Positions 25,265 to 33,067 of a stretch of 64,000 nt of DNA are shown here, one piece after another. Each line of letters opens with the position of its first letter. Position 1 is the first letter of the stretch. Source of the stretch: a plasmid; the NCBI RefSeq assembly GCF_053078305.1, contig NZ_CP166875.1. One strand, given 5' to 3'. Under the pieces are notes generated by a model. That model was not told the DNA's origin, did no database searches, and saw only the letters and a program-made list of their open reading frames with translations. Position numbers and translations under genes: made by a program.

Positions 25265-26848
25265 ATGTCTACCCGCAGCAATTTTCCAGCACGACATGGT
25301 ACTCCATGGAATACTGAAGAGTTACAGCGTCTTCTCGTATCCATAGCGGAGGGCGTCTCGCTAAAAAAACTTACTCAAACACATCAACGATCGTCCGGGG
25401 GAATACGTGGAGCAATCAAACGCCTGCTTCCTTCTGAGTTTCTTGAGTTCAACGATATAAACACGGTGAATGATCTCAGCAATTACTTCAACAAGATTCC
25501 TCGCCAAGAACACAATAGTATCATCAATAATTTAATATCATTGAGCACTGCAAAAACAATTGCTCATGATAAAGTTGAAATACAAAAGAATAGTTTTAAA
25601 CAAAATACCCCACTCCCCCTCTGCCAACCCAATACAGATTTTAAAGATTATATAGCCGATGAACATGATGTCATTATGCTAATTCATTCTGCTATCGAAA
25701 GTTTATCTAATAAACGACATCAATATATTCTTCTAATGCGACTCGGCACAGATGATTCACCTCATTCTCTGGCAGATATTGCCGTCAAATTAGGAATTTC
25801 CCGTGAAAGGGTAAGACAACTTCAGGAACGAGCCCTTGGCTTACTAGCTGCTAAATCTCGCTATGAAGGGACACCTGGAGCTTGCCTTAAAGCCCTTATT
25901 AACTCAATAGGTAATTCACCATATGATATAGCAGTATGGATTTATCGTATTGTTCATCGGGATTTCGTTACATCCTCTGACTTAGCCGCCAAATTCATTA
26001 TTTTTACCGCAGGCATTCCTAAAGCAAGACGAGATGAAATAAAAAGTTCGCTCTCATTAATATCACAATTACAAAAGCAGAGGTTACGTGAACGAAGAGC
26101 AGAATTAGCACACGCTCGCGCTCAGGAAAGAGCCCGAATCAAGAAAGAAAGAGTTGAGTTCATATTCAGTAAATGGCTAGACAATACACATTGGCCAAAA
26201 TATATCGCACCTCCTCCCCCCGTAGAACAGCTATGTTCACAGAGAGCGGTTAATGATACTGACATATCTGGATTCTTTTACTCTCAAAAATTAGGTCGTA
26301 CAGTCCAGTACGAATCAGGGCTTGAGTTTAAAATAATGAATCTATTAGAATGTTGCGATCAGGTTCTTTTCTATCAAGAACAACCATTTTCTATTCCATA
26401 TTGTTTTAAAAACAAATCAAAAAAATACTATCCAGATTTACTCATTGCGACAGTTGATGGTCGGTGCCTACTTATGGAAGTGAAGCCAACAGACCGAATG
26501 ACCTTGAGTCTCACGAGAATAAAAAGTAATGCAGGTCGCAAATGGGCACATACTCGAGGATGGGGATGGTTGGTCATTAGTGATAGGTTCTCGTTACGTC
26601 AGCTGGAAGAACATGCCATCTCAACAAACACATGGAAACTTATAGAGGCTGAACTGAAAACATCAAGGATTTTAGCATGGCGTGAAATGATGGAGTTACG
26701 TACACGATACGAGATTCATCGTTTAGATCTTATTGCATATATCATTCAGTCTGGTGCTGAAGTGGATAACTTTTATCGAATTACCCCGAAAATATCTAAT
26801 AATACATCTAACCAGAGACAACTAAATGAGAGCGACTGTCATAATTGA
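25265..26848 (+). CDS. fusion protein: sigma-70 region-4-like HTH and C-terminal TnsA-like PD-(D/E)xK endonuclease domain
   Basis: Strongly AT-rich 527-aa ORF; HTH segment SLADIAVKLGISRERVRQLQERALGLL; C-terminal YESGLEF...YYPDLLIATVDGRCLLMEVK resembles the TnsA/restriction-endonuclease fold. Confidence 0.5.
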   Translation: MSTRSNFPARHGTPWNTEELQRLLVSIAEGVSLKKLTQTHQRSSGGIRGAIKRLLPSEFLEFNDINTVNDLSNYFNKIPRQEHNSIINNLISLSTAKTIAHDKVEIQKNSFKQNTPLPLCQPNTDFKDYIADEHDVIMLIHSAIESLSNKRHQYILLMRLGTDDSPHSLADIAVKLGISRERVRQLQERALGLLAAKSRYEGTPGACLKALINSIGNSPYDIAVWIYRIVHRDFVTSSDLAAKFIIFTAGIPKARRDEIKSSLSLISQLQKQRLRERRAELAHARAQERARIKKERVEFIFSKWLDNTHWPKYIAPPPPVEQLCSQRAVNDTDISGFFYSQKLGRTVQYESGLEFKIMNLLECCDQVLFYQEQPFSIPYCFKNKSKKYYPDLLIATVDGRCLLMEVKPTDRMTLSLTRIKSNAGRKWAHTRGWGWLVISDRFSLRQLEEHAISTNTWKLIEAELKTSRILAWREMMELRTRYEIHRLDLIAYIIQSGAEVDNFYRITPKISNNTSNQRQLNESDCHN

Positions 26849-27467
26849 TGACGCACAGGACGGAAAAAATAATAGCTGCCGGACAGCAGCAACCAGCAGT
26901 CGTCCGGTAAAAAAGACAAACAAGGCGCATTGAGGTCAGCCTTCGCAACAATCCGGCGGCAGATTCTCTACCGCCGTGTTGCCCGTTAACGTTTAACTTC
27001 GTAGGCTAACGTTGCCACAAGCACCGTATTTCCCTGCTCGATACGAAATCCGCAAAGCGAATCCCTCACCATCCAGACAAAACACAGTATCGTCACACAG
27101 ACGACGATTAACATCATTAAAAACGTTCGTTGTGGCATCGCAGCCCCTCCATTGCCTTTCGGCCGTCATCGGGCTACTATAATGTTGTTGAGGCATTACA
27201 GTGGGCCCTGGGTTGATTGATAAAAAAATCGCCTGGGGCTTTCTGCTACATGCCGTCCACAAAACGCTTTCGGCATACAGCCTCAAGCGCCCGCCGCTAT
27301 TCTAATCGTTTTCCAGTCCGCCACAATCCTTTTCATGCCACCACGTATTTTGTGTCAGGGACAGAAATAAAGCCGGAAAGTGACTACGTGTGCACACATC
27401 TGTTTTCCGGGCTGCAGGCATCGTGTTATTTTCTGAAATGCAAAATAATAAAAAACAAGGACACATC

Positions 27468-27710
27468 ATGAAGGATGAAATACACAGTACCAGCATTAAC
27501 CCGGATGTTGTTGAGCAGTTTCTGGCCCTTATGAACACACATTGTAAATCCTCAGAAGAGGCACTCGCCATGCTGAGTACGCTTTGTTACAACCTGATGA
27601 TGACATGCGGTATCCATTCCATGGACAGCCAGATGCTCAATGGGCATGGGATATCCATGCAACTTCAGGGGATTGATATTGCCGAAAGGCCAGGCAAGAA
27701 TATTCACTAA
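27468..27710 (+). CDS. hypothetical small protein
   Basis: ATG 27468 preceded by AAGGA; 80 aa. Confidence 0.3.
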   Translation: MKDEIHSTSINPDVVEQFLALMNTHCKSSEEALAMLSTLCYNLMMTCGIHSMDSQMLNGHGISMQLQGIDIAERPGKNIH

Positions 27711-27994
27711 CCTGAACAGGGTCTGAAAACGCTGATTTTTCAGCGTCTCTGCAGGCTAAAACTGATGATGTAATGACAACAAAATTTCTGCGTTTGTACC
27801 CCACCGATGAAAAAGACAAAAACTCACACCGGGCTTCTCATCATTAAAGATAAAACCCGACGTGTCAGCCTCTACGAAACGCCAACGGCATGGTGTATCA
27901 GGGGGCAGGAGTGCTACAGCAAAAGTACAGGACGCCGCTGTGGCAGCCACGACAGTCTGAGCAGACTGCGCCTGGACAGCATTAAGCCTGTTGA

Positions 27995-28378
27995 ATGAGT
28001 GGTGGCACCATGAAAGATAACAACACAACCTCCACCCCAGAAGCCTGGAAAATGCGTTTTCTGGCCAACGGGACATCCGGCACATGGTTTTACACTGACG
28101 ACATTGCAGTCACTGACGCGTGGCTTCGCGCGCACCCGGATGATGTGGAGGTTATCCCTCTCTGCCGGATACAGCCCCGCCAGCATTCCCATGAACAACA
28201 TATTGAAGAACTCCGCGCAGCCCTGGCCCGGATGCTCCATATGCATCATATGATGCTGGAAACCACACATTACCGGGAAAATATCACCGATGCCCGTTGT
28301 ATCCGTGAAATGCATGAAGCGCCATTACAGGCGCTCAATATTCTGTCCAGATACCCGCATAAAAAGGACGAGGTGTGA
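27995..28378 (+). CDS. hypothetical protein (His-rich)
   Basis: 127-aa ORF, first of three tightly linked small ORFs. Confidence 0.3.
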   Translation: MSGGTMKDNNTTSTPEAWKMRFLANGTSGTWFYTDDIAVTDAWLRAHPDDVEVIPLCRIQPRQHSHEQHIEELRAALARMLHMHHMMLETTHYRENITDARCIREMHEAPLQALNILSRYPHKKDEV

Positions 28379-28381
28379 CGC

Positions 28382-28597
28382 ATGTGGCTACTGATTTTCT
28401 GGCTTTCATCGCCCTTTAATGTCTCTTCCGGTGATGCCCGTCAGCCCACACTGGCGGTGCACAGCCAGGCCTTTCATACCGAACGGGCCTGCCGCGATGC
28501 ATTGCGCGCCATTAAAAAGGAGAATGTTGGCGAATTTTCTCTGCGGGGCGTTTGTGTTTCTGACGGAAATACGAAGGAGGAGGCTGAGAGCTCATGA
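28382..28597 (+). CDS. hypothetical small protein
   Basis: 71-aa ORF starting 4 nt after the previous stop; N-terminal hydrophobic segment. Confidence 0.25.
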   Translation: MWLLIFWLSSPFNVSSGDARQPTLAVHSQAFHTERACRDALRAIKKENVGEFSLRGVCVSDGNTKEEAESS

Positions 28598-28845
28598 CGG
28601 ATATTACTGACAGACATACACTTCGCCGTATGTCCTGGTCGGAACTCATCACGGCAGGACAGGAAGCAGAATTTCAGCATGATTACGAGCGTGCCAGAAT
28701 AGTGTGGTCATTCGCCTTACATGTTGCAACAACCACGATTAACAAAAATCTGGCCATAGCTCATATTCGACGCTGCGATACTTTGTTGCATAAATCAAAG
28801 GCTGTACCCGGAAACAACCCGTGTGGTTCCGGTCAGCGAGTCTGA
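28594..28845 (+). CDS. hypothetical small helical protein
   Basis: 83-aa ORF overlapping the previous stop; predicted helical. Confidence 0.3.
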   Translation: MTDITDRHTLRRMSWSELITAGQEAEFQHDYERARIVWSFALHVATTTINKNLAIAHIRRCDTLLHKSKAVPGNNPCGSGQRV

Positions 28846-29475
28846 GACCTCAACATCCCGGGTGATGATTGTCATTCCGGACTGACGCAGCCGCTGCACA
28901 TCTGCGGCAATACGTTGAATACCAAGCCAGAACAGACCATCCAGCGCGGTGACAATTAACCCGCTTTCCAGCGCCAGTTTCAGCCGTGCTGTCGGGGCTT
29001 TAACCTGCCCGGCTATATCAGTGAAACAACGCGTCGTCATGCCATAGCTGTCCGCCCGCCGTATTCGCGTCGCAAGACTGTAACTGAAGCTATCCGGCAC
29101 GCCGGATAAGTCATTCTGCAGACTGTATACACATCCCCGCTGCCGCTCATTGAATACAACTTTTTTCTGGCTGAGCTGCCATTCCCGCCGCACGCTGTCA
29201 ATCATCTGCGGTGTCCGGGTTAACAGCAGACGAAACGGCAGTTCAAAACTGGTCACATAATCAACATTAAGTAAGGCAATCCGCAGCCGCTCCCTGGCTC
29301 CTGCTCCGGTATCACGGCATTCACGCATGACATCTTCCCACTGGCGCATCAGTCGCGGTGACTCATTCCTGGCCCTGAACTGATATTTCTCAATCTGATA
29401 ATCAATATGTTCCTGCATACCGTCACCGGATATCTGTTGCCGTATCATCACGGATATCAGCGTACTGGAATTCAT
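28795..29475 (-). CDS. hypothetical protein with putative C-terminal DNA-binding region
   Basis: 226-aa minus-strand ORF convergent with the small-ORF cluster; C-terminus LDGLFWLGIQRIAADVQRLRQSGMTIITRD looks HTH-like. Confidence 0.35.
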   Translation of the reverse strand: MNSSTLISVMIRQQISGDGMQEHIDYQIEKYQFRARNESPRLMRQWEDVMRECRDTGAGARERLRIALLNVDYVTSFELPFRLLLTRTPQMIDSVRREWQLSQKKVVFNERQRGCVYSLQNDLSGVPDSFSYSLATRIRRADSYGMTTRCFTDIAGQVKAPTARLKLALESGLIVTALDGLFWLGIQRIAADVQRLRQSGMTIITRDVEVSDSLTGTTRVVSGYSL

Positions 29476-29577
29476 GCCCTGCGTGAAGTATCACACTGCC
29501 AAAAAAAACACACCTGAACGTTATTATTTCGCAATATTAATTGCACCTGTTTTCATAAATAAAAAGGAGACGATGAA

Positions 29578-30045
29578 ATGATAAAATATATCTTTTCACT
29601 CACCATTATTTTTTCCGCTTCTCTCTGTGCTGCACAGATTCAGGGGCACGTCATCCGCGTTCTTGATGGTGATACGCTGGAAATATTACAGGACAAAAAG
29701 CCTGTCAGGGTCCGTCTGGCTAATATTGATGCACCGGAAAAGAAACAGCCCTTTGGACGCTGGTCAGCCACTCAGCTGAAGGACCTGGTGGCCGGAAAGC
29801 CCGTAACCGTGCAATACGCGCAGACAGACAGGTATGGCCGTATTCTCGGCCGGGTCTATACCGCTGACGGCACAGAAGCAAATCGCTGGCAGGTCCGTAA
29901 CGGCGCTGCCTGGGTGTACCCGGACTACAATAATGACTATACTCTCCCGCCGCTCCAGCGTGATGCCCGCGCCCTGAAGCGGGGATTATGGGCAGATAAA
30001 AATCCGGTACCACCATGGACCTGGAGAAAACAGAATAAGAAATAA
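29578..30045 (+). CDS. nuc: secreted thermonuclease (staphylococcal nuclease/SNase family)
   Basis: SD AAGGAGA; signal peptide; SNase motifs VIRVLDGDT, RVRLANIDAPE, DRYGRILGRVY. Confidence 0.75.
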   Translation: MIKYIFSLTIIFSASLCAAQIQGHVIRVLDGDTLEILQDKKPVRVRLANIDAPEKKQPFGRWSATQLKDLVAGKPVTVQYAQTDRYGRILGRVYTADGTEANRWQVRNGAAWVYPDYNNDYTLPPLQRDARALKRGLWADKNPVPPWTWRKQNKK

Positions 30046-30385
30046 TTATTTGCTGATATGAAGAAAAAAACCATTTCAAAGAAAATAAATGGCAAAAATA
30101 CAGCATGGAAAAAAATTGCCATTTTTACCGCCGCGTTATTTTTAATATTTGCTGTCTGCTGGTCGTAATAAGCAGAATAACAGAAAGGTGTAAAAATGAA
30201 CCTGGTTGATGCATTTGTCACTAAAGTGATATCCGGACCGTATGAAGAATACGGAAAATGGTGGGTGGATGTAGAATATATTTCCTGGGGAGTTCCGGGT
30301 AAAAGCCGGCTCATGTTTGACTCACGGGAACAGGCACAGGAAGTGCAGGAAGGTTTTCGATTTTTAACCTGAGCATATTTTGTTA

Positions 30386-30434: not shown

Positions 30435-30530
30435 TCAGTCAACCAGTTCCCGGATCAGTTCCAGGAGAGCTATCACTGCGTTAGCCACAGCAACAACCGC
30501 CCTGAGAACGATGATTAACAGGTTAATCAT
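30435..30530 (-). CDS. DinQ/TisB-like small hydrophobic toxin peptide, copy 1 (31 aa)
   Basis: Encodes MINLLIIVLRAVVAVANAVIALLELIRELVD; GGAG 8 nt before ATG; the IALLELIR core matches DinQ as I recall it. Confidence 0.4.
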   Translation of the reverse strand: MINLLIIVLRAVVAVANAVIALLELIRELVD

Positions 30531-30845
30531 CCGCTTCTCCATCAATGGAGAAAGAACACCGTGGTTTGCCCTTACATTGCCTGTCGCCACGTTTTCTATA
30601 GTGTCAGTTATAGACAGTTCTTCTCCGGCCAGAGCACCAAAACCAGCACCACCTGATGTTTTGGCCAGGACTTGCAACCTGTTCATCCCGGTGAACGATA
30701 TGCCGGAAAGAACGTGCCTCAAAGCTGACACACCGAGTATATACTTATACTGTGCTTGCAGAAATATTATTTCAGCCGTATTATTTCATAGTCAGTTATA
30801 GGCAGTTATCTTCCGGTCAGGGCTACCAACTTCGATCCGGAATCG

Positions 30846-30876
30846 CAAAAAAACCGGCCTCACCAGTCGGTTTTTT
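30846..30876 (+). terminator. A-tract / hairpin / T-tract terminator, possible 3' end of an antisense sRNA
   Basis: AAAAAAACCG-loop-CGGTTTTTTT; sits at the far end of the toxin leader. Confidence 0.4.
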
Positions 30877-31077
30877 TGCGTCTGTACCTCCTCCCCGGAC
30901 AGCAGTTCTCTCACTCCCGTTGAATATTTCCTGTTGAATTTTACGAAAATACGGCAAATGGGAGATATCGAATATATTTCCTTGGGTGTAGTCGGTAAAA
31001 ACCAGCTCATGTTTGACTCACAGAAACAGGCTCTGGAAGTACAGAAAGTAATCTGTCCGTAGATTATTAAAGGGCAG

Positions 31078-31107
31078 AGGGCGGTGACCCTCTGCCCTTA
31101 AGTACGT
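31078..31107. terminator. hairpin after toxin copy 2
   Basis: Same 9-bp inverted repeat as at 30386. Confidence 0.4.
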
Positions 31108-31118
31108 TTCCGGGATTA

Positions 31119-31214
31119 TCAGTCAACCAGTTCCCGGATCAGTTCCAGGAGAGCTATCACTGCGTTAGCCACAGCAACAACCGCCCTGAGAACGATGATT
31201 AACAGGTTAATCAT
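31119..31214 (-). CDS. DinQ/TisB-like small hydrophobic toxin peptide, copy 2
   Basis: Identical 31-aa peptide and GGAG site to copy 1. Confidence 0.4.
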   Translation of the reverse strand: MINLLIIVLRAVVAVANAVIALLELIRELVD

Positions 31215-31575
31215 CCGTTTCTCCATCAATGGAGGAAATCACTGTTGTTTACTCTTACATTGCCTGTCACAACAGCTCTTTCATTGTTAGCTGAAAAGAG
31301 ACTTCCTCCGGCCAGAGCACCAGACGCAGCACCACCTGTTTGTCCGGCCAGGTCTTTGAATAGCACAGATCCATAGTCCCGATGGATTGATGCGAAGGTA
31401 AGTCTCCAGACAAGGCTAACTTGCTGATTATACTTGTTTCAGGCGATATCGCTACTCCCGGAACAATAGACTGTAACGAACAGATTGCGATCAGGTGAAT
31501 ATAACGATATTCTGGTAACGTTAGTTGAAAAGAGACTTCCCCCGGGCCAGAGCCACCCACTCTCCCTGGGATCGC

Positions 31576-31606
31576 AAAAAAGCCGGCCTCACCAGTCGGC
31601 TTTTTT
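31576..31606 (+). terminator. A-tract / hairpin / T-tract terminator (second copy)
   Basis: AAAAAAGCCG-loop-CGGCTTTTTT; same loop sequence as at 30846. Confidence 0.4.
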
Positions 31607-31750
31607 GTGCCTGTCTCTCACCACCTTCTGCTGTTCCTGTGAAAATGCCCTGCTGAATTCAGCCCTGCCCGGTCATTACCGGCGATTGTTCGCATTAATT
31701 CCACTCAGCCTCATCCCGAAATTTATCTATTTATCGATGGAGGAATCCTC

Positions 31751-33067
31751 GTGTCTTACCAACACTCCCCCACAACAGAAGACCCGATGAACATATGGTA
31801 TATCGTTGGCACCATATGTCTGCTCTTTGCGCTTCTCATCTGGCTCTTTTTACCCGACATCGTCTTTGCCACCTGCCTGATCCTGCACACAATGTGGGGG
31901 ATGACTGACTGGGGGCCTTTTCACCATTTTGCCGCCCCCCGTTACAACCTGCTGGCCATCACTGCTAACAACGCGGCAACCATCACTTTCGGCCAGTGGC
32001 TGGATGTTATGTCCCGGACAGTGGGGATCCTCTGGTTGATTCTGCTTCCCATGACATTCGGCTTTCTGTGGATGTGGTTTCACCATCCGGCCCAGCCCCG
32101 TTTTACCCGCAGGCCACTGAATATCCACACACTGCCCCATATTTTTTCAGCTCTGTCACCGGCGATCGCCCCCGTTCTGGCTGATGGAGACAACAACAGA
32201 CTCTTCCACGGACAAAAACGTCCCGAGCGCCGTGTCGCACTAACCCCCGAAGTCTTTGTGGAGCAGAACAACCTTATCCGCAACATGCAGCTCGATGTTG
32301 CGTCCACACGCCAGTGCTTCATGGCGCAACTGGGGCAACCACTGACCAGCTGGAAAGACATGGCCCCACATGAAAAAGCGCTCTTTGCCATCTTTGGCCT
32401 GCAGTTCTTCCTCGGTGACCGGAAAGCAGCGGTAGCCCTGATGAACAACCTCAATCTCTCCTGCAGGCTCAAAAGTAAACGGGACCAGGGGCGTTTCAGC
32501 ACGCCGGTGTATTCACTGGCCAGAAACGCCTTTATCCGGGTCATCAAAACAGAAGGCGCACAACAGTGGCTCAGGCAGCACCGTTACGTTCGCAGCGGTC
32601 TGGTCTGGCTTTACGCACATGATTTGCGCCTGACGCCTCCGAACTGGCTGTGGCTCAAGGGCGTTGACCGGACGCTCTTCTATGCCCTTCACCGGGCAAA
32701 CACCACAAAAGGCTTCATCGAAGGGGCCGGCGTGGTGGCCGTTGCCCGGGCAGAAAATGAAGCCAGCCGTCTCGGCCTCCCCTGCCCGGAACCCTGTGTG
32801 GAAGAGGCCATTGAAGGGCTTCGACGGGACATGCTGGGGCTGGGCCTGATATGGGACGAACCTCAGCCAGATCGCGATCGTAAACGTCAGATCAGGACCC
32901 GCTGGTCACTCACGGATGACGTGATACCCCGCCGCCATGATAACGACGAAGACACTGACACTGGTGAAACCACCGAAACCACCGAAACCACCGAAACCAC
33001 CGAAACCACCGAAACCACCGAAACCACCGAAAAACAGCATCCCGCCGACAAGGAAAAAGAACAATGA
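31751..33067 (+). CDS. T4SS inner-membrane protein, DotM/IcmP-like (TrbA-like)
   Basis: GTG start after GGAGG; N-terminal TM helices; C-terminal ETT tandem repeat; precedes the trbB/trbC-like genes. Confidence 0.5.
   Translation: MSYQHSPTTEDPMNIWYIVGTICLLFALLIWLFLPDIVFATCLILHTMWGMTDWGPFHHFAAPRYNLLAITANNAATITFGQWLDVMSRTVGILWLILLPMTFGFLWMWFHHPAQPRFTRRPLNIHTLPHIFSALSPAIAPVLADGDNNRLFHGQKRPERRVALTPEVFVEQNNLIRNMQLDVASTRQCFMAQLGQPLTSWKDMAPHEKALFAIFGLQFFLGDRKAAVALMNNLNLSCRLKSKRDQGRFSTPVYSLARNAFIRVIKTEGAQQWLRQHRYVRSGLVWLYAHDLRLTPPNWLWLKGVDRTLFYALHRANTTKGFIEGAGVVAVARAENEASRLGLPCPEPCVEEAIEGLRRDMLGLGLIWDEPQPDRDRKRQIRTRWSLTDDVIPRRHDNDEDTDTGETTETTETTETTETTETTETTEKQHPADKEKEQ
32966..33028 (+). repeat. in-frame tandem 9-bp repeat (gaaaccacc, 6-7 copies)
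   Basis: Perfect tandem units encoding (ETT)n at the TrbA-like C-terminus. Confidence 0.85.

Follow-up and report, generated by a model that had tools for sequence, protein, structure and literature searches.

A small-gene chain on a conjugative I-complex plasmid of Escherichia coli ends in a putative divergent relative of the ANR family

The DNA that we analyzed, called the window here, is a 64,000-nt stretch (contig NZ_CP166875.1 of RefSeq assembly GCF_053078305.1) of a conjugative I-complex (IncB/O/K/Z) plasmid of E. coli. The segment under study is bounded by excA/pnd on one side and nuc/trbA on the other. Several IncK2/Z plasmids match the region at 100% identity, and pMS7163B, the plasmid of the published TraDIS experiment, matches it at 99.7%. 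An earlier note, made from the letters and a list of open reading frames (ORFs), had described a cluster of four small ORFs of 80, 127, 71, and 83 amino acids (aa) and a fifth of 226 aa, and the ORF list contains all five exactly where they had been placed. The cluster was incomplete, as a sixth gene, orf63, sits inside the 284-nt gap between the 80- and 127-aa ORFs and had been overlooked. The ORFs were said to be chained by 4-nt gaps or overlaps, which holds from the 127-aa to the 71-aa ORF (a 3-nt gap) and from there to the 83-aa ORF (a 4-nt ATGA overlap) but not across the 284-nt gap. The true coupled chain consists of products of 63, 122, 71, and 83 aa, and orf80 lies 96 nt upstream of it (Table 1).

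Table 1. Features of the segment and its immediate context (positions in the window).
Feature	Position	Strand	Product and remarks
hok/sok (pnd)	26986-27292	-	Type I toxin-antitoxin system; HokA NF007290, E = 1.3e-18; context
sok RNA	27136-27292		Rfam RF01794, 124.7 bits
orf80	27468-27710	+	80 aa; AAGGA Shine-Dalgarno motif; conserved hypothetical
orf63	27807-27998	+	63 aa; first gene in the four-gene chain
orf122	28010-28378	+	122 aa; the 127-aa ORF if started at 27995
orf71	28382-28597	+	71 aa; GAGG Shine-Dalgarno motif
orf83	28594-28845	+	83 aa; putative divergent ANR-like protein; strong AAGGAGGAGG Shine-Dalgarno motif
ECs1377-family HTH gene	28795-29418	-	207 aa; over-called as 226 aa (28795-29475)
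nuc	29578-30045	+	Secreted thermonuclease family; Pfam SNase, E = 6.5e-22; context, outside the small-ORF chain

The stop codon of orf63 overlaps the first ATG of the 127-aa ORF (ATGA). The ATG at 28010 has a GGTGG Shine-Dalgarno-like motif and is also the RefSeq start; it is the more likely start of this ORF, giving 122 aa and an 11-nt gap after orf63. Shine-Dalgarno motifs precede orf122, orf71, and orf83, and none was found for orf63 in the window lineage. We infer that the four-gene chain is an operon that is at least partly translationally coupled, and its gene order is kept in three diverged lineages (loci L002, L005, and L006-8 and the window type). A scan for consensus promoters returned 3 sites versus 4.0 expected from shuffled sequence, and terminators were likewise not above the shuffled level. 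On the other strand, the helix-turn-helix (HTH) gene converges on orf83, as the earlier note had seen, with a 51-nt overlap of the 3' ends, and is divergent from nuc. Codons 1 to 19 of the 226-aa ORF are interrupted by a stop in two diverged copies, and M20 is the conserved start. Therefore, 226 aa was an over-call and the real length is 207 aa, with which the RefSeq call concurs.

Using the Nei-Gojobori method, we compared the window genes with diverged copies, with nuc as a control. The dN/dS ratio was 0.17 to 0.49 for orf80 (copies 56 to 71% identical in protein), about 0.10 for orf63, 0.15 to 0.22 for orf122, about 0.075 for orf71, and 0.23 for the HTH gene; the nuc control gave 0.12 to 0.15. 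For orf83, dS was saturated in comparisons of the window with the diverged copies; elsewhere in its family, dN/dS was 0.245 for L006 versus the chromosomal window-type copy L011 and about 0.38 for a pair of diverged copies. Within the window lineage, the core of orf83 showed pN/pS values of 0.2 to 1.1, with changes concentrated at residues 19 to 34, and its constraint is therefore weaker than that of its neighbors. The small ORFs are intact in the plasmid and chromosomal copies examined, and frameshifts in relatives, which the earlier note had named as evidence that would count against it, were absent from those copies. The six ORFs are real genes under purifying selection, like nuc, with overall dN/dS values of about 0.07 to 0.3.

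Because a toxin-antitoxin-like module had been suggested for this region, we asked whether one product might poison the cell and its neighbor neutralize it. Small genes with overlapping start and stop codons would suit such an addiction module, and true type I systems are already present in the flanks, with hok/sok at one end and a pair of dqlB/AgrB copies at the other. The genes are also small and plasmid-borne and have overlapping frames, as in the type II operons ccdAB and pemIK; unlike those two-gene operons, this locus has four to five genes, no toxin or antitoxin domain, and no gene that is TraDIS essential. No block gene matched a toxin-antitoxin, toxin, or defense family in Pfam, NCBIfam, PADLOC, or PHROGs. 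In the published TraDIS data for pMS7163B, all block genes had logCPM values of 12.6 to 13.3, the same as nonessential cargo, and the essential genes repA and parB had values of 0.98 and 7.8 (PMC10286972, S1 Table A). For single genes, the data gave a logFC of -0.78 and a logCPM of 12.9 for orf80 and logFC values of +2.08 for orf122 and +1.62 for orf83 (gene 00580) (PMC10286972). Values of +1.3 to +2.9, in line with those of other cargo, were obtained for these genes, so carrying them may have a small fitness cost. Insertion density in the input library was normal in each gene and, because insertions are abundant in every gene, none behaves as an indispensable antitoxin. Furthermore, genes of the block occur singly in other replicons and form no fixed pair. 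We conclude that the region is not a toxin-antitoxin module, a reading that we regard as extremely unlikely. By the published TraDIS, neither plasmid maintenance nor surface conjugation requires the block genes.

The block is present in 992 of 5,426 complete E. coli genomes (18%), on plasmids and in pathogenicity islands. The window arrangement with the 51-nt HTH overlap is found in about 355 plasmids. The virulence cargo that accompanies the block consists of iha and genes for SPATE autotransporters. At each of the eight chromosomal loci examined, the gene directly upstream is iha or an iha-like receptor gene, and at seven of them a SPATE or sat gene is no more than 10 kb away; diverged copies lie directly downstream of espP and other SPATE genes (L003 and L005 to L008). 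Strains such as Nissle 1917 and ATCC 25922 also carry the orf83 ANR-like gene, in their iha/sat island. An intact YdeO/GadX/HilD-like AraC regulator lies 4 to 5 kb from the block in four of the five fetched chromosomal loci (L009 to L012), and in the fifth (L013), it is split by an insertion sequence (IS) element. This company, including the AraC gene, would be expected if the block were an appendage of the neighboring virulence genes that controls their expression or export rather than the plasmid or the host at large. However, neither a SPATE gene nor iha is found near the block in the window or the approximately 355 related plasmids. Between lineages, including the SPATE-linked copies, homology begins at the ATG of orf63 and not in shared upstream DNA, and the linkage may reflect shared IS-flanked recombination hot spots. 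We therefore consider such an appendage improbable. Parts of the block are also found apart: orf80 is solitary on one IncF plasmid (L017), ANR-like genes stand alone at L025 and L029, and orf63 and orf122 occur without the others at L003.

The earlier note had found none of the ORFs recognizable, which is only partly true. We found no family match for orf80, which adjoins hok/sok on I-complex plasmids and precedes the four-gene chain in chromosomal copies. Judging from its matches, orf63 is a phage-derived small protein. It has the motifs KTHTG and GRR...RRLxLxxIKP, matches phrog_1226, 7520, 5148, and 4183 (E values down to 7e-17), and has homologues in 100 phage records, with 43 to 53% identity among the matches listed. 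A zinc site that had been considered in orf63 was dropped because the cysteines vary among the phage homologues. The orf71 product, with a conserved MWxLIxW N terminus and two conserved cysteines, is likewise phage related (phrog_3766, E = 2.5e-11; Klebsiella phage homologues 41% identical). The orf122 family was seen in E. coli only and had no match in any library searched; its invariant cysteines and histidines are C52, LHMHH at 76 to 80, C97, and H102. Its AlphaFold2 (AF2) model, built from 7 sequences, was poor (pLDDT of 48) and was therefore left out of the fold search. The 207-aa, 127-aa, and 63-aa proteins and the ANR-like profile gave nothing meaningful when compared with PDB sequences.

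These phage connections raise the question of whether the chain is phage-derived conflict cargo that excludes superinfecting phages or plasmids or counters host defense, like the "ea/nin" morons. In phages, the homologues of orf63 and orf71 belong to accessory clusters of the early region, where their neighbors are replication, Ea, and Nin genes or exonuclease and integrase genes; the 207-aa family is also found in one phage early region, beside a recT-like gene; and orf63, orf71, and orf83 have PHROG relatives. The chain resembles lambdoid "ea/nin" arrays in its tiny same-strand genes, its overlapping stops and starts, and its mixture of unrelated families, two members of which have homologues there. 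Unlike those arrays, it resides on a conjugative plasmid and in pathogenicity islands, and blastn found no copy of the chain DNA in the phage collection. In addition, PADLOC gave no match for any of the six genes, and all of the matched PHROG families are of unknown function. The locus lies outside the leading region, where the anti-defense genes of I-complex plasmids are clustered (PMC10286972), and the sole gene with a functional lead suggests transcriptional modulation. A conflict function is decidedly unlikely in our judgment.

The convergent gene, in contrast to the statement that nothing was recognizable, clearly belongs to the ECs1377 family. The protein scored 299.6 bits against the equivalog model NF052300 (E = 7e-90; model positions 2 to 190 of 190; cut-off, 190 bits). 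The C-terminal HTH that had been noted corresponds to Pfam HTH_39 (PF14090), which covers residues 165 to 226 in the 226-aa numbering (E = 6.5e-6) and scores 26.4 bits versus a cut-off of 21.3. In the confident AF2 model (pLDDT of 92.8), there are two winged-helix domains, and residues 129 to 206 form a helix-helix-helix-helix-strand-strand arrangement that matches ArsR-, MarR-, and Stf76-type winged-helix domains. The model thus points to a two-domain winged-helix protein of the ECs1377 family with predicted DNA binding. Like other members of this family (NF052300; PHROG 24243; named after an ORF of E. coli O157 Sakai), it has about 207 aa and a C-terminal HTH_39 winged helix. The chromosomal members examined lie in tRNA-island backbones beside AlpA-like and UCP030791 genes, and the plasmid member is paired instead with nuc. 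A search for operator repeats in the nuc-HTH intergenic region, at 29419 to 29577, found short, unconvincing repeats only.

Could this protein be the dedicated regulator of the chain, so that all six genes form one regulatory unit? The genes are adjacent and convergent, and the 3' overlap of 51 nt recurs in the window and the approximately 355 plasmids. The HTH gene, however, keeps a different partner. The HTH-nuc pair stays together at L002, L004, L018, and L030, and it is the small ORFs that change place; at L002 and L004, a phosphoethanolamine-transferase cassette occupies the position that the small ORFs have in the window, and at L002, the chain lies downstream of nuc. On chromosomes, the HTH gene decays to a pseudogene, and about 800 copies combine such a decaying fragment with intact small ORFs. 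Elsewhere, the ECs1377 family occurs in island backbones without the small genes. We consider a single unit of this kind very unlikely.

The last gene of the chain, orf83, is unannotated in RefSeq plasmid records, most plasmids having no annotated feature under the match, and it is mislabelled elsewhere as "neurotensin receptor R8" and "FlgM." A literature search turned up passing mentions of ECs1377, the "neurotensin receptor R8" ORF, and the genes described here but no functional study of any of them. The conserved core of orf83 spans approximately residues 10 to 66 (about 57 aa); the last 17 codons are antisense to the 3' end of the HTH gene and are not conserved elsewhere. Relatives of 103 to 107 aa also exist. 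All members of the orf83 family matched a single model, NF033650, which describes the Aar-like AraC negative regulators (ANR). The window orf83 scored 20.6 bits (E = 3e-4; model positions 9 to 52 of 54), which is below the 32-bit cut-off, and other variants scored 15 to 31 bits, with most covering model positions 4 to 52 of 54. The alignment runs across all three ANR helix regions. A profile search of 1.84 billion proteins with the orf83 family found P0207 (E = 1e-19) and P0211 (E = 3.5e-10), which score 41.1 and 34.9 bits on NF033650, both above the cut-off. Because the window protein is below the cut-off and these relatives are above it, the link to ANR is transitive rather than direct. Comparison by hhalign of the family with the single Aar sequence gave a probability of 8.6%, and tblastn of orf83 against plasmids (E of 10 or less) did not reach annotated ANR genes.

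Residues that define the ANR family were then compared. The signature comprises seven residues, with the consensus A10, E14, A22, W26, A29, W43, and R47, corresponding to A14, E18, A26, W30, A33, W45, and R49 in Aar (PMC4983702). Four of the seven are exact in orf83 (E26, A34, W38, and A41), and two of the remainder are conservative. G22 stands at Aar A14 (Ala in close relatives), H57 stands at Aar R49 (Lys in other lineages), and L53 takes the place of Aar W45, which Aar reportedly needs to be active. In an ungapped alignment, Aar residues E18, A26, W30, A33, N42, and C53 are conserved in orf83. ANR proteins have a mass of less than 10 kDa (PMC4983702), and that of orf83 is about 9 kDa. Like Aar of EAEC 042, Rnr of Citrobacter rodentium, and Cnr of ETEC (NF033650; PMC4038620, PMC4983702, PMC5570504), orf83 is small and is carried by an enteric pathogen on a mobile element, it aligns over nearly the full model, and a GadX/YdeO-class AraC gene is near some chromosomal copies. 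Unlike them, it is longer by 12 residues at the N terminus and has a tail that varies, and it closes a chain of four genes, whereas an ANR gene is solitary and AraC activated. The orf83 product resembles the ANR family as a divergent relative. No AraC-family regulator was found among the window ORFs scanned with Pfam or NCBIfam, and any AraC partner of orf83 would therefore have to be chromosomal.

Taken together, these results lead us to a reading to which we give an even chance, namely, that the region is an accessory mosaic composed of three independent pieces and not one functional module, and that it carries regulatory cargo including an ANR-family anti-activator. The first piece would be orf80, a stand-alone conserved gene. 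The second would be the one-strand chain of orf63, orf122, orf71, and orf83, in which orf63 and orf71 have phage homologues and the last product would be a divergent ANR-family anti-activator. The third would be the convergent gene of the ECs1377-family tandem winged-helix protein, in a divergent pair with nuc. Regulatory cargo is the most likely role of the genes, and the regulatory half of the earlier proposal is plausible in light of the ANR-like orf83 and the tandem winged-helix protein; its toxin-antitoxin half fell with the absence of family matches, the separable parts, and the TraDIS data. By analogy with Aar, Rnr, and Cnr, orf83 would most likely act by protein-protein contact, and its target would be the central dimerization region of AraC/XylS regulators (AggR/GadX/YdeO/HilD class), H-NS, or both. 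The outcome would be that host or island transcription is retuned once the element arrives. The winged-helix protein would most likely bind DNA and regulate the backbone of the mobile element, possibly at the nuc-HTH intergenic region.

A bolder version, which we think unlikely but worth stating, is that the chain serves as a mobile "regulator-hijacking" cassette, with the ANR-like product targeting GadX, YdeO, and/or H-NS, perhaps together with three cotranslated partners, including the Cys/His-rich orf122. The cassette would retune acid resistance and virulence genes (SPATEs and iha) or make the plasmid less costly to carry. If true, this would explain the intact retention of the block in 18% of complete E. 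coli genomes.

The locus is otherwise ordinary, being dispensable accessory cargo, and orf83 is an additional, previously overlooked gene that by sequence resembles the known ANR family. For annotation, a 63-aa gene and an ANR-like gene that are commonly missed or misnamed have now been placed, and the exclusion of a toxin-antitoxin module is a useful negative result. The putative ANR-like gene is carried by widespread IncK/B/O/Z resistance plasmids. If it is a true anti-activator, plasmids and islands could modulate AraC-class regulators or H-NS of their host, which would bear on plasmid fitness cost and virulence regulation.

An earlier note had described four coupled small ORFs converging on a 226-aa HTH gene, and ORF calling in the window found all five ORFs where it had placed them. 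The cluster is real and conserved, but its anatomy had been misread. Coupling holds for the 127-aa ORF (called orf122 here, with a later start; plus-strand genes are named by product length), orf71, and orf83 but not for orf80, which lies 284 nt from the 127-aa ORF. Inside this interval is an overlooked gene, orf63, annotated by RefSeq in some records, and the actual coupled order is orf63, orf122/127, orf71, and orf83 (the four-gene chain). orf63 ends in a stop codon that overlaps the initial ATG of the 127-aa version, for which 28010 is the better start, with a GGTGG Shine-Dalgarno-like motif. Three nucleotides separate orf122 from orf71, ATGA is common to the orf71 end and the orf83 start, and a Shine-Dalgarno motif is clear for both genes (GAGG for orf71, AAGGAGGAGG for orf83). 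The HTH gene encodes 207 aa instead of 226, and two diverged copies have a stop within the upstream 19 codons. It overlaps orf83 by 51 nt; the final 17 codons of orf83 are antisense of the HTH gene 3' end and differ in all other lineages. This overlap is apparently why orf83 is unannotated in most RefSeq plasmid records; elsewhere it is misnamed, for example as "neurotensin receptor R8" or "flagellar biosynthesis protein FlgM" (RefSeq and GenBank plasmid records). Between orf80 and orf63 is a 7-bp hairpin (ACGCTGA-TTTT-TCAGCGT) without a U-tract, partially conserved in the chromosomal copy.

Features of the region, with Nei-Gojobori dN/dS (diverged plasmid and chromosomal copies L002-L008, L011, L017, L018, and L030-L032) and pMS7163B TraDIS values (gene number, logCPM per gene, and logFC after conjugation; PMC10286972)
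Feature	Coordinates	Strand	dN/dS	Gene	logCPM	logFC
traY/excA	upstream of 527-aa protein gene	+				
527-aa protein (TnsA-N and sigma-70 region 4 domains)	25265-26848	+				
hok/sok	26986-27292	-				
Small-ORF cluster and HTH gene	27468-29475	both				
orf80		+	0.17-0.49	00550	12.9	-0.78
Hairpin	27729-27746					
orf63	27807-27998	+	about 0.10			
orf122	28010-28378	+	0.15-0.22	00560	13.2	+2.08
orf71		+	about 0.075	00570	12.6	+1.29
orf83	28594-28845	+	0.2-1.1 (core inside window lineage, dN/dS or pN/pS); 0.245 (family, L006 vs chromosomal window-type L011; dS vs window itself saturated); about 0.38 (family, two diverged copies compared)	00580	13.0	+1.62
HTH gene	28795-29418	-	0.23	00590	13.3	+2.94
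nuc	29578-30045	+	0.12-0.15 (control)	00600	12.9	+2.20
58-aa ORF	30196-30372	+		00610	12.7	+4.69
Two dqlB/AgrB type I toxin loci	about 30435-31608	both				
58-aa ORF, degenerate second copy	30934-31062					
trbABC	from 31751	+				
trbA	31751-33067	+				
repA					0.98	
parB					7.8	
pnd					12.5	-3.44

In diverged copies of the six genes, third codon positions took most substitutions, and no frameshifts were found among the diverged copies collected. Judged by these patterns and by low dN/dS, all six are genuine protein-coding genes. Constraint within the window lineage was weakest in orf83, whose changes were grouped in residues 19 to 34.

The sole match of orf83 was NCBIfam NF033650, the ANR (AraC negative regulator) family, which was the only or best match of every variant and was spanned almost entirely. 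Scores were 20.6 bits for the window orf83 and 15 to 31 bits for other variants, against a cut-off of 32 bits. Using an orf83 family profile against 1.84 billion representative proteins, we recovered relatives of which two exceed this cut-off: P0207 (E=1e-19 to the profile; 41.1 bits on NF033650) and P0211 (E=3.5e-10 to the profile; 34.9 bits on NF033650). ANR was the best match for 10 of 10 relatives tested from this search. We also compared orf83 with Aar, the ANR protein of EAEC 042 (sequence from pAA), for which signature residues and mutagenesis data are published (PMC4983702). In an ungapped alignment, E18, A26, W30, A33, N42, and C53 of Aar are kept, whereas W45 is Leu and R49 is His or Lys in the orf83 family. 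Because of the subcut-off scores, the above-cut-off relatives, and the partial residue match, we call orf83 a putative divergent ANR branch and stop short of certifying its membership.

The 207-aa protein falls clearly within the ECs1377 family (NF052300, 299.6 bits), with a phrog_24243 match and a C-terminal Pfam HTH_39 domain. This family is common across Enterobacterales, with homologues in 2791 of 5426 E. coli genomes; the chromosomal examples examined lie in island backbones adjoining AlpA-like and UCP030791 genes, and one occurs in the early region of an Erwinia phage. Both orf63 and orf71 fall in PHROG families without known function. Their homologues lie in accessory gene clusters within the early regions of phages, including Stx, Yersinia, and Klebsiella phages. 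No match to orf80 or orf122 was found across Pfam, NCBIfam, PHROGs, PADLOC, and PDB sequences, and the orf122 family was detected in E. coli only. Cys and His residues of orf122 invariant across all lineages (C52, L76-H-M-H-H80, C97, and H102) suggest a metal-binding site. An AF2 model of orf122 was too poor in quality and was set aside.

The earlier note had also proposed a toxin-antitoxin-like module. From 27000 to 30100, several E. coli and Shigella plasmids of the IncK2/Z group (I-complex, MOBP/MPF_I) match the sequence with 100% identity. Identity is 99.7% to pMS7163B (CP026855), for which Lian et al. published TraDIS data (PLoS Genet 2023, PMC10286972; S1 Table A, where orf63 is not annotated). 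Every listed cluster gene tolerated insertions, and none was required for surface conjugation (PMC10286972). This tolerance is direct evidence that, under those conditions, the genes do not serve as an addiction system or antitoxin, and the toxin-antitoxin proposal is not supported. Positive logFC values resembled those of other cargo (neo_1, +2.05; tnpA, +3.74), and the authors did not name the cluster genes as repressors (PMC10286972). The 58-aa ORF directly 3' of nuc, without a match in family searches, showed the strongest postconjugation insertion enrichment of the neighbourhood (PMC10286972).

Genuine type I systems do bracket the region: hok/sok and two tandem DinQ-like (dqlB) loci, each with an AgrB antisense RNA (Rfam RF02891; 30792-30879, 47.7 bits, and 31521-31608, 38.5 bits). 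The 527-aa protein between excA and hok has a sigma-70 region-4 HTH (residues 149 to 192) and a TnsA-like endonuclease N-terminal domain (residues 365 to 439); it is kept in pMS7163B (gene 520) and pRM10466-1 and missing from other relatives, e.g., NZ_CP024887. DotM-like TrbA ends in a low-complexity, acidic tail, a perfect (TE-T)n repeat (TETTETTETTETTETTETTE).

The orf80-orf83 block occurs in 992 of 5426 complete E. coli genomes, including Nissle 1917 and ATCC 25922, at 801 chromosomal and 260 plasmid places (identity of at least 90% in all records but one). An iha or iha-like receptor gene lies directly upstream in all eight chromosomal loci examined, and a SPATE gene or sat lies within 10 kb in seven. 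An intact YdeO/GadX/HilD-like AraC regulator lies 4 to 5 kb away in four (L009-L012) of five chromosomal loci. Chromosomal copies keep the small ORFs intact and the HTH gene as a decaying fragment. Virulence cargo is a recurrent neighbour: in chromosomal islands L009-L012, L022, L031, and L032 the block lies directly 3' of iha, with sat or a SPATE gene of 1363 codons nearby, and in plasmids L003 and L005-L008 directly 3' of espP-type SPATE genes.

Loci L002 and L004, from related I-complex plasmids, have the order hok, orf80, phosphoethanolamine-transferase gene, DUF2569 gene, HTH gene, and nuc. The phosphoethanolamine-transferase and DUF2569 genes (L002, 1721-3911; L004, 2694-4885) fill the slot of the window's small ORFs, marking the site as a cargo-exchange hot spot. 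The four-gene chain lies downstream of nuc in L002 and after other SPATE autotransporter genes in L005-L008; an IncF plasmid has espP followed by orf63 and orf122 only, and L017 has orf80 without the others. Between the two main lineages, homology begins exactly at the orf63 ATG. By these rearrangements, orf80 is one separable unit, the four-gene chain a second, and the HTH-nuc pair a third. ANR-like relatives of orf83 also occur singly, within tra regions and on pO157-like plasmids, so the other chain genes are not obligate partners.

Taken together, regulatory or accessory cargo is the best-supported reading, and the regulatory part of the earlier proposal is plausible. The cargo comprises a four-gene chain, related in part to phage genes, whose last product is an ANR-like putative anti-activator, and a separate winged-helix DNA-binding gene paired with nuc. 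These sequences are common and already deposited, and the novelty is modest, lying in the recognition of missed or misnamed genes and in the ANR link. Aar has been shown to inhibit AraC-class regulators by protein-protein contact or to modulate H-NS (PMC4983702, PMC5570504). By family resemblance only, we infer that the orf83 product would act likewise, inhibiting AraC-class regulators by contact or modulating H-NS.
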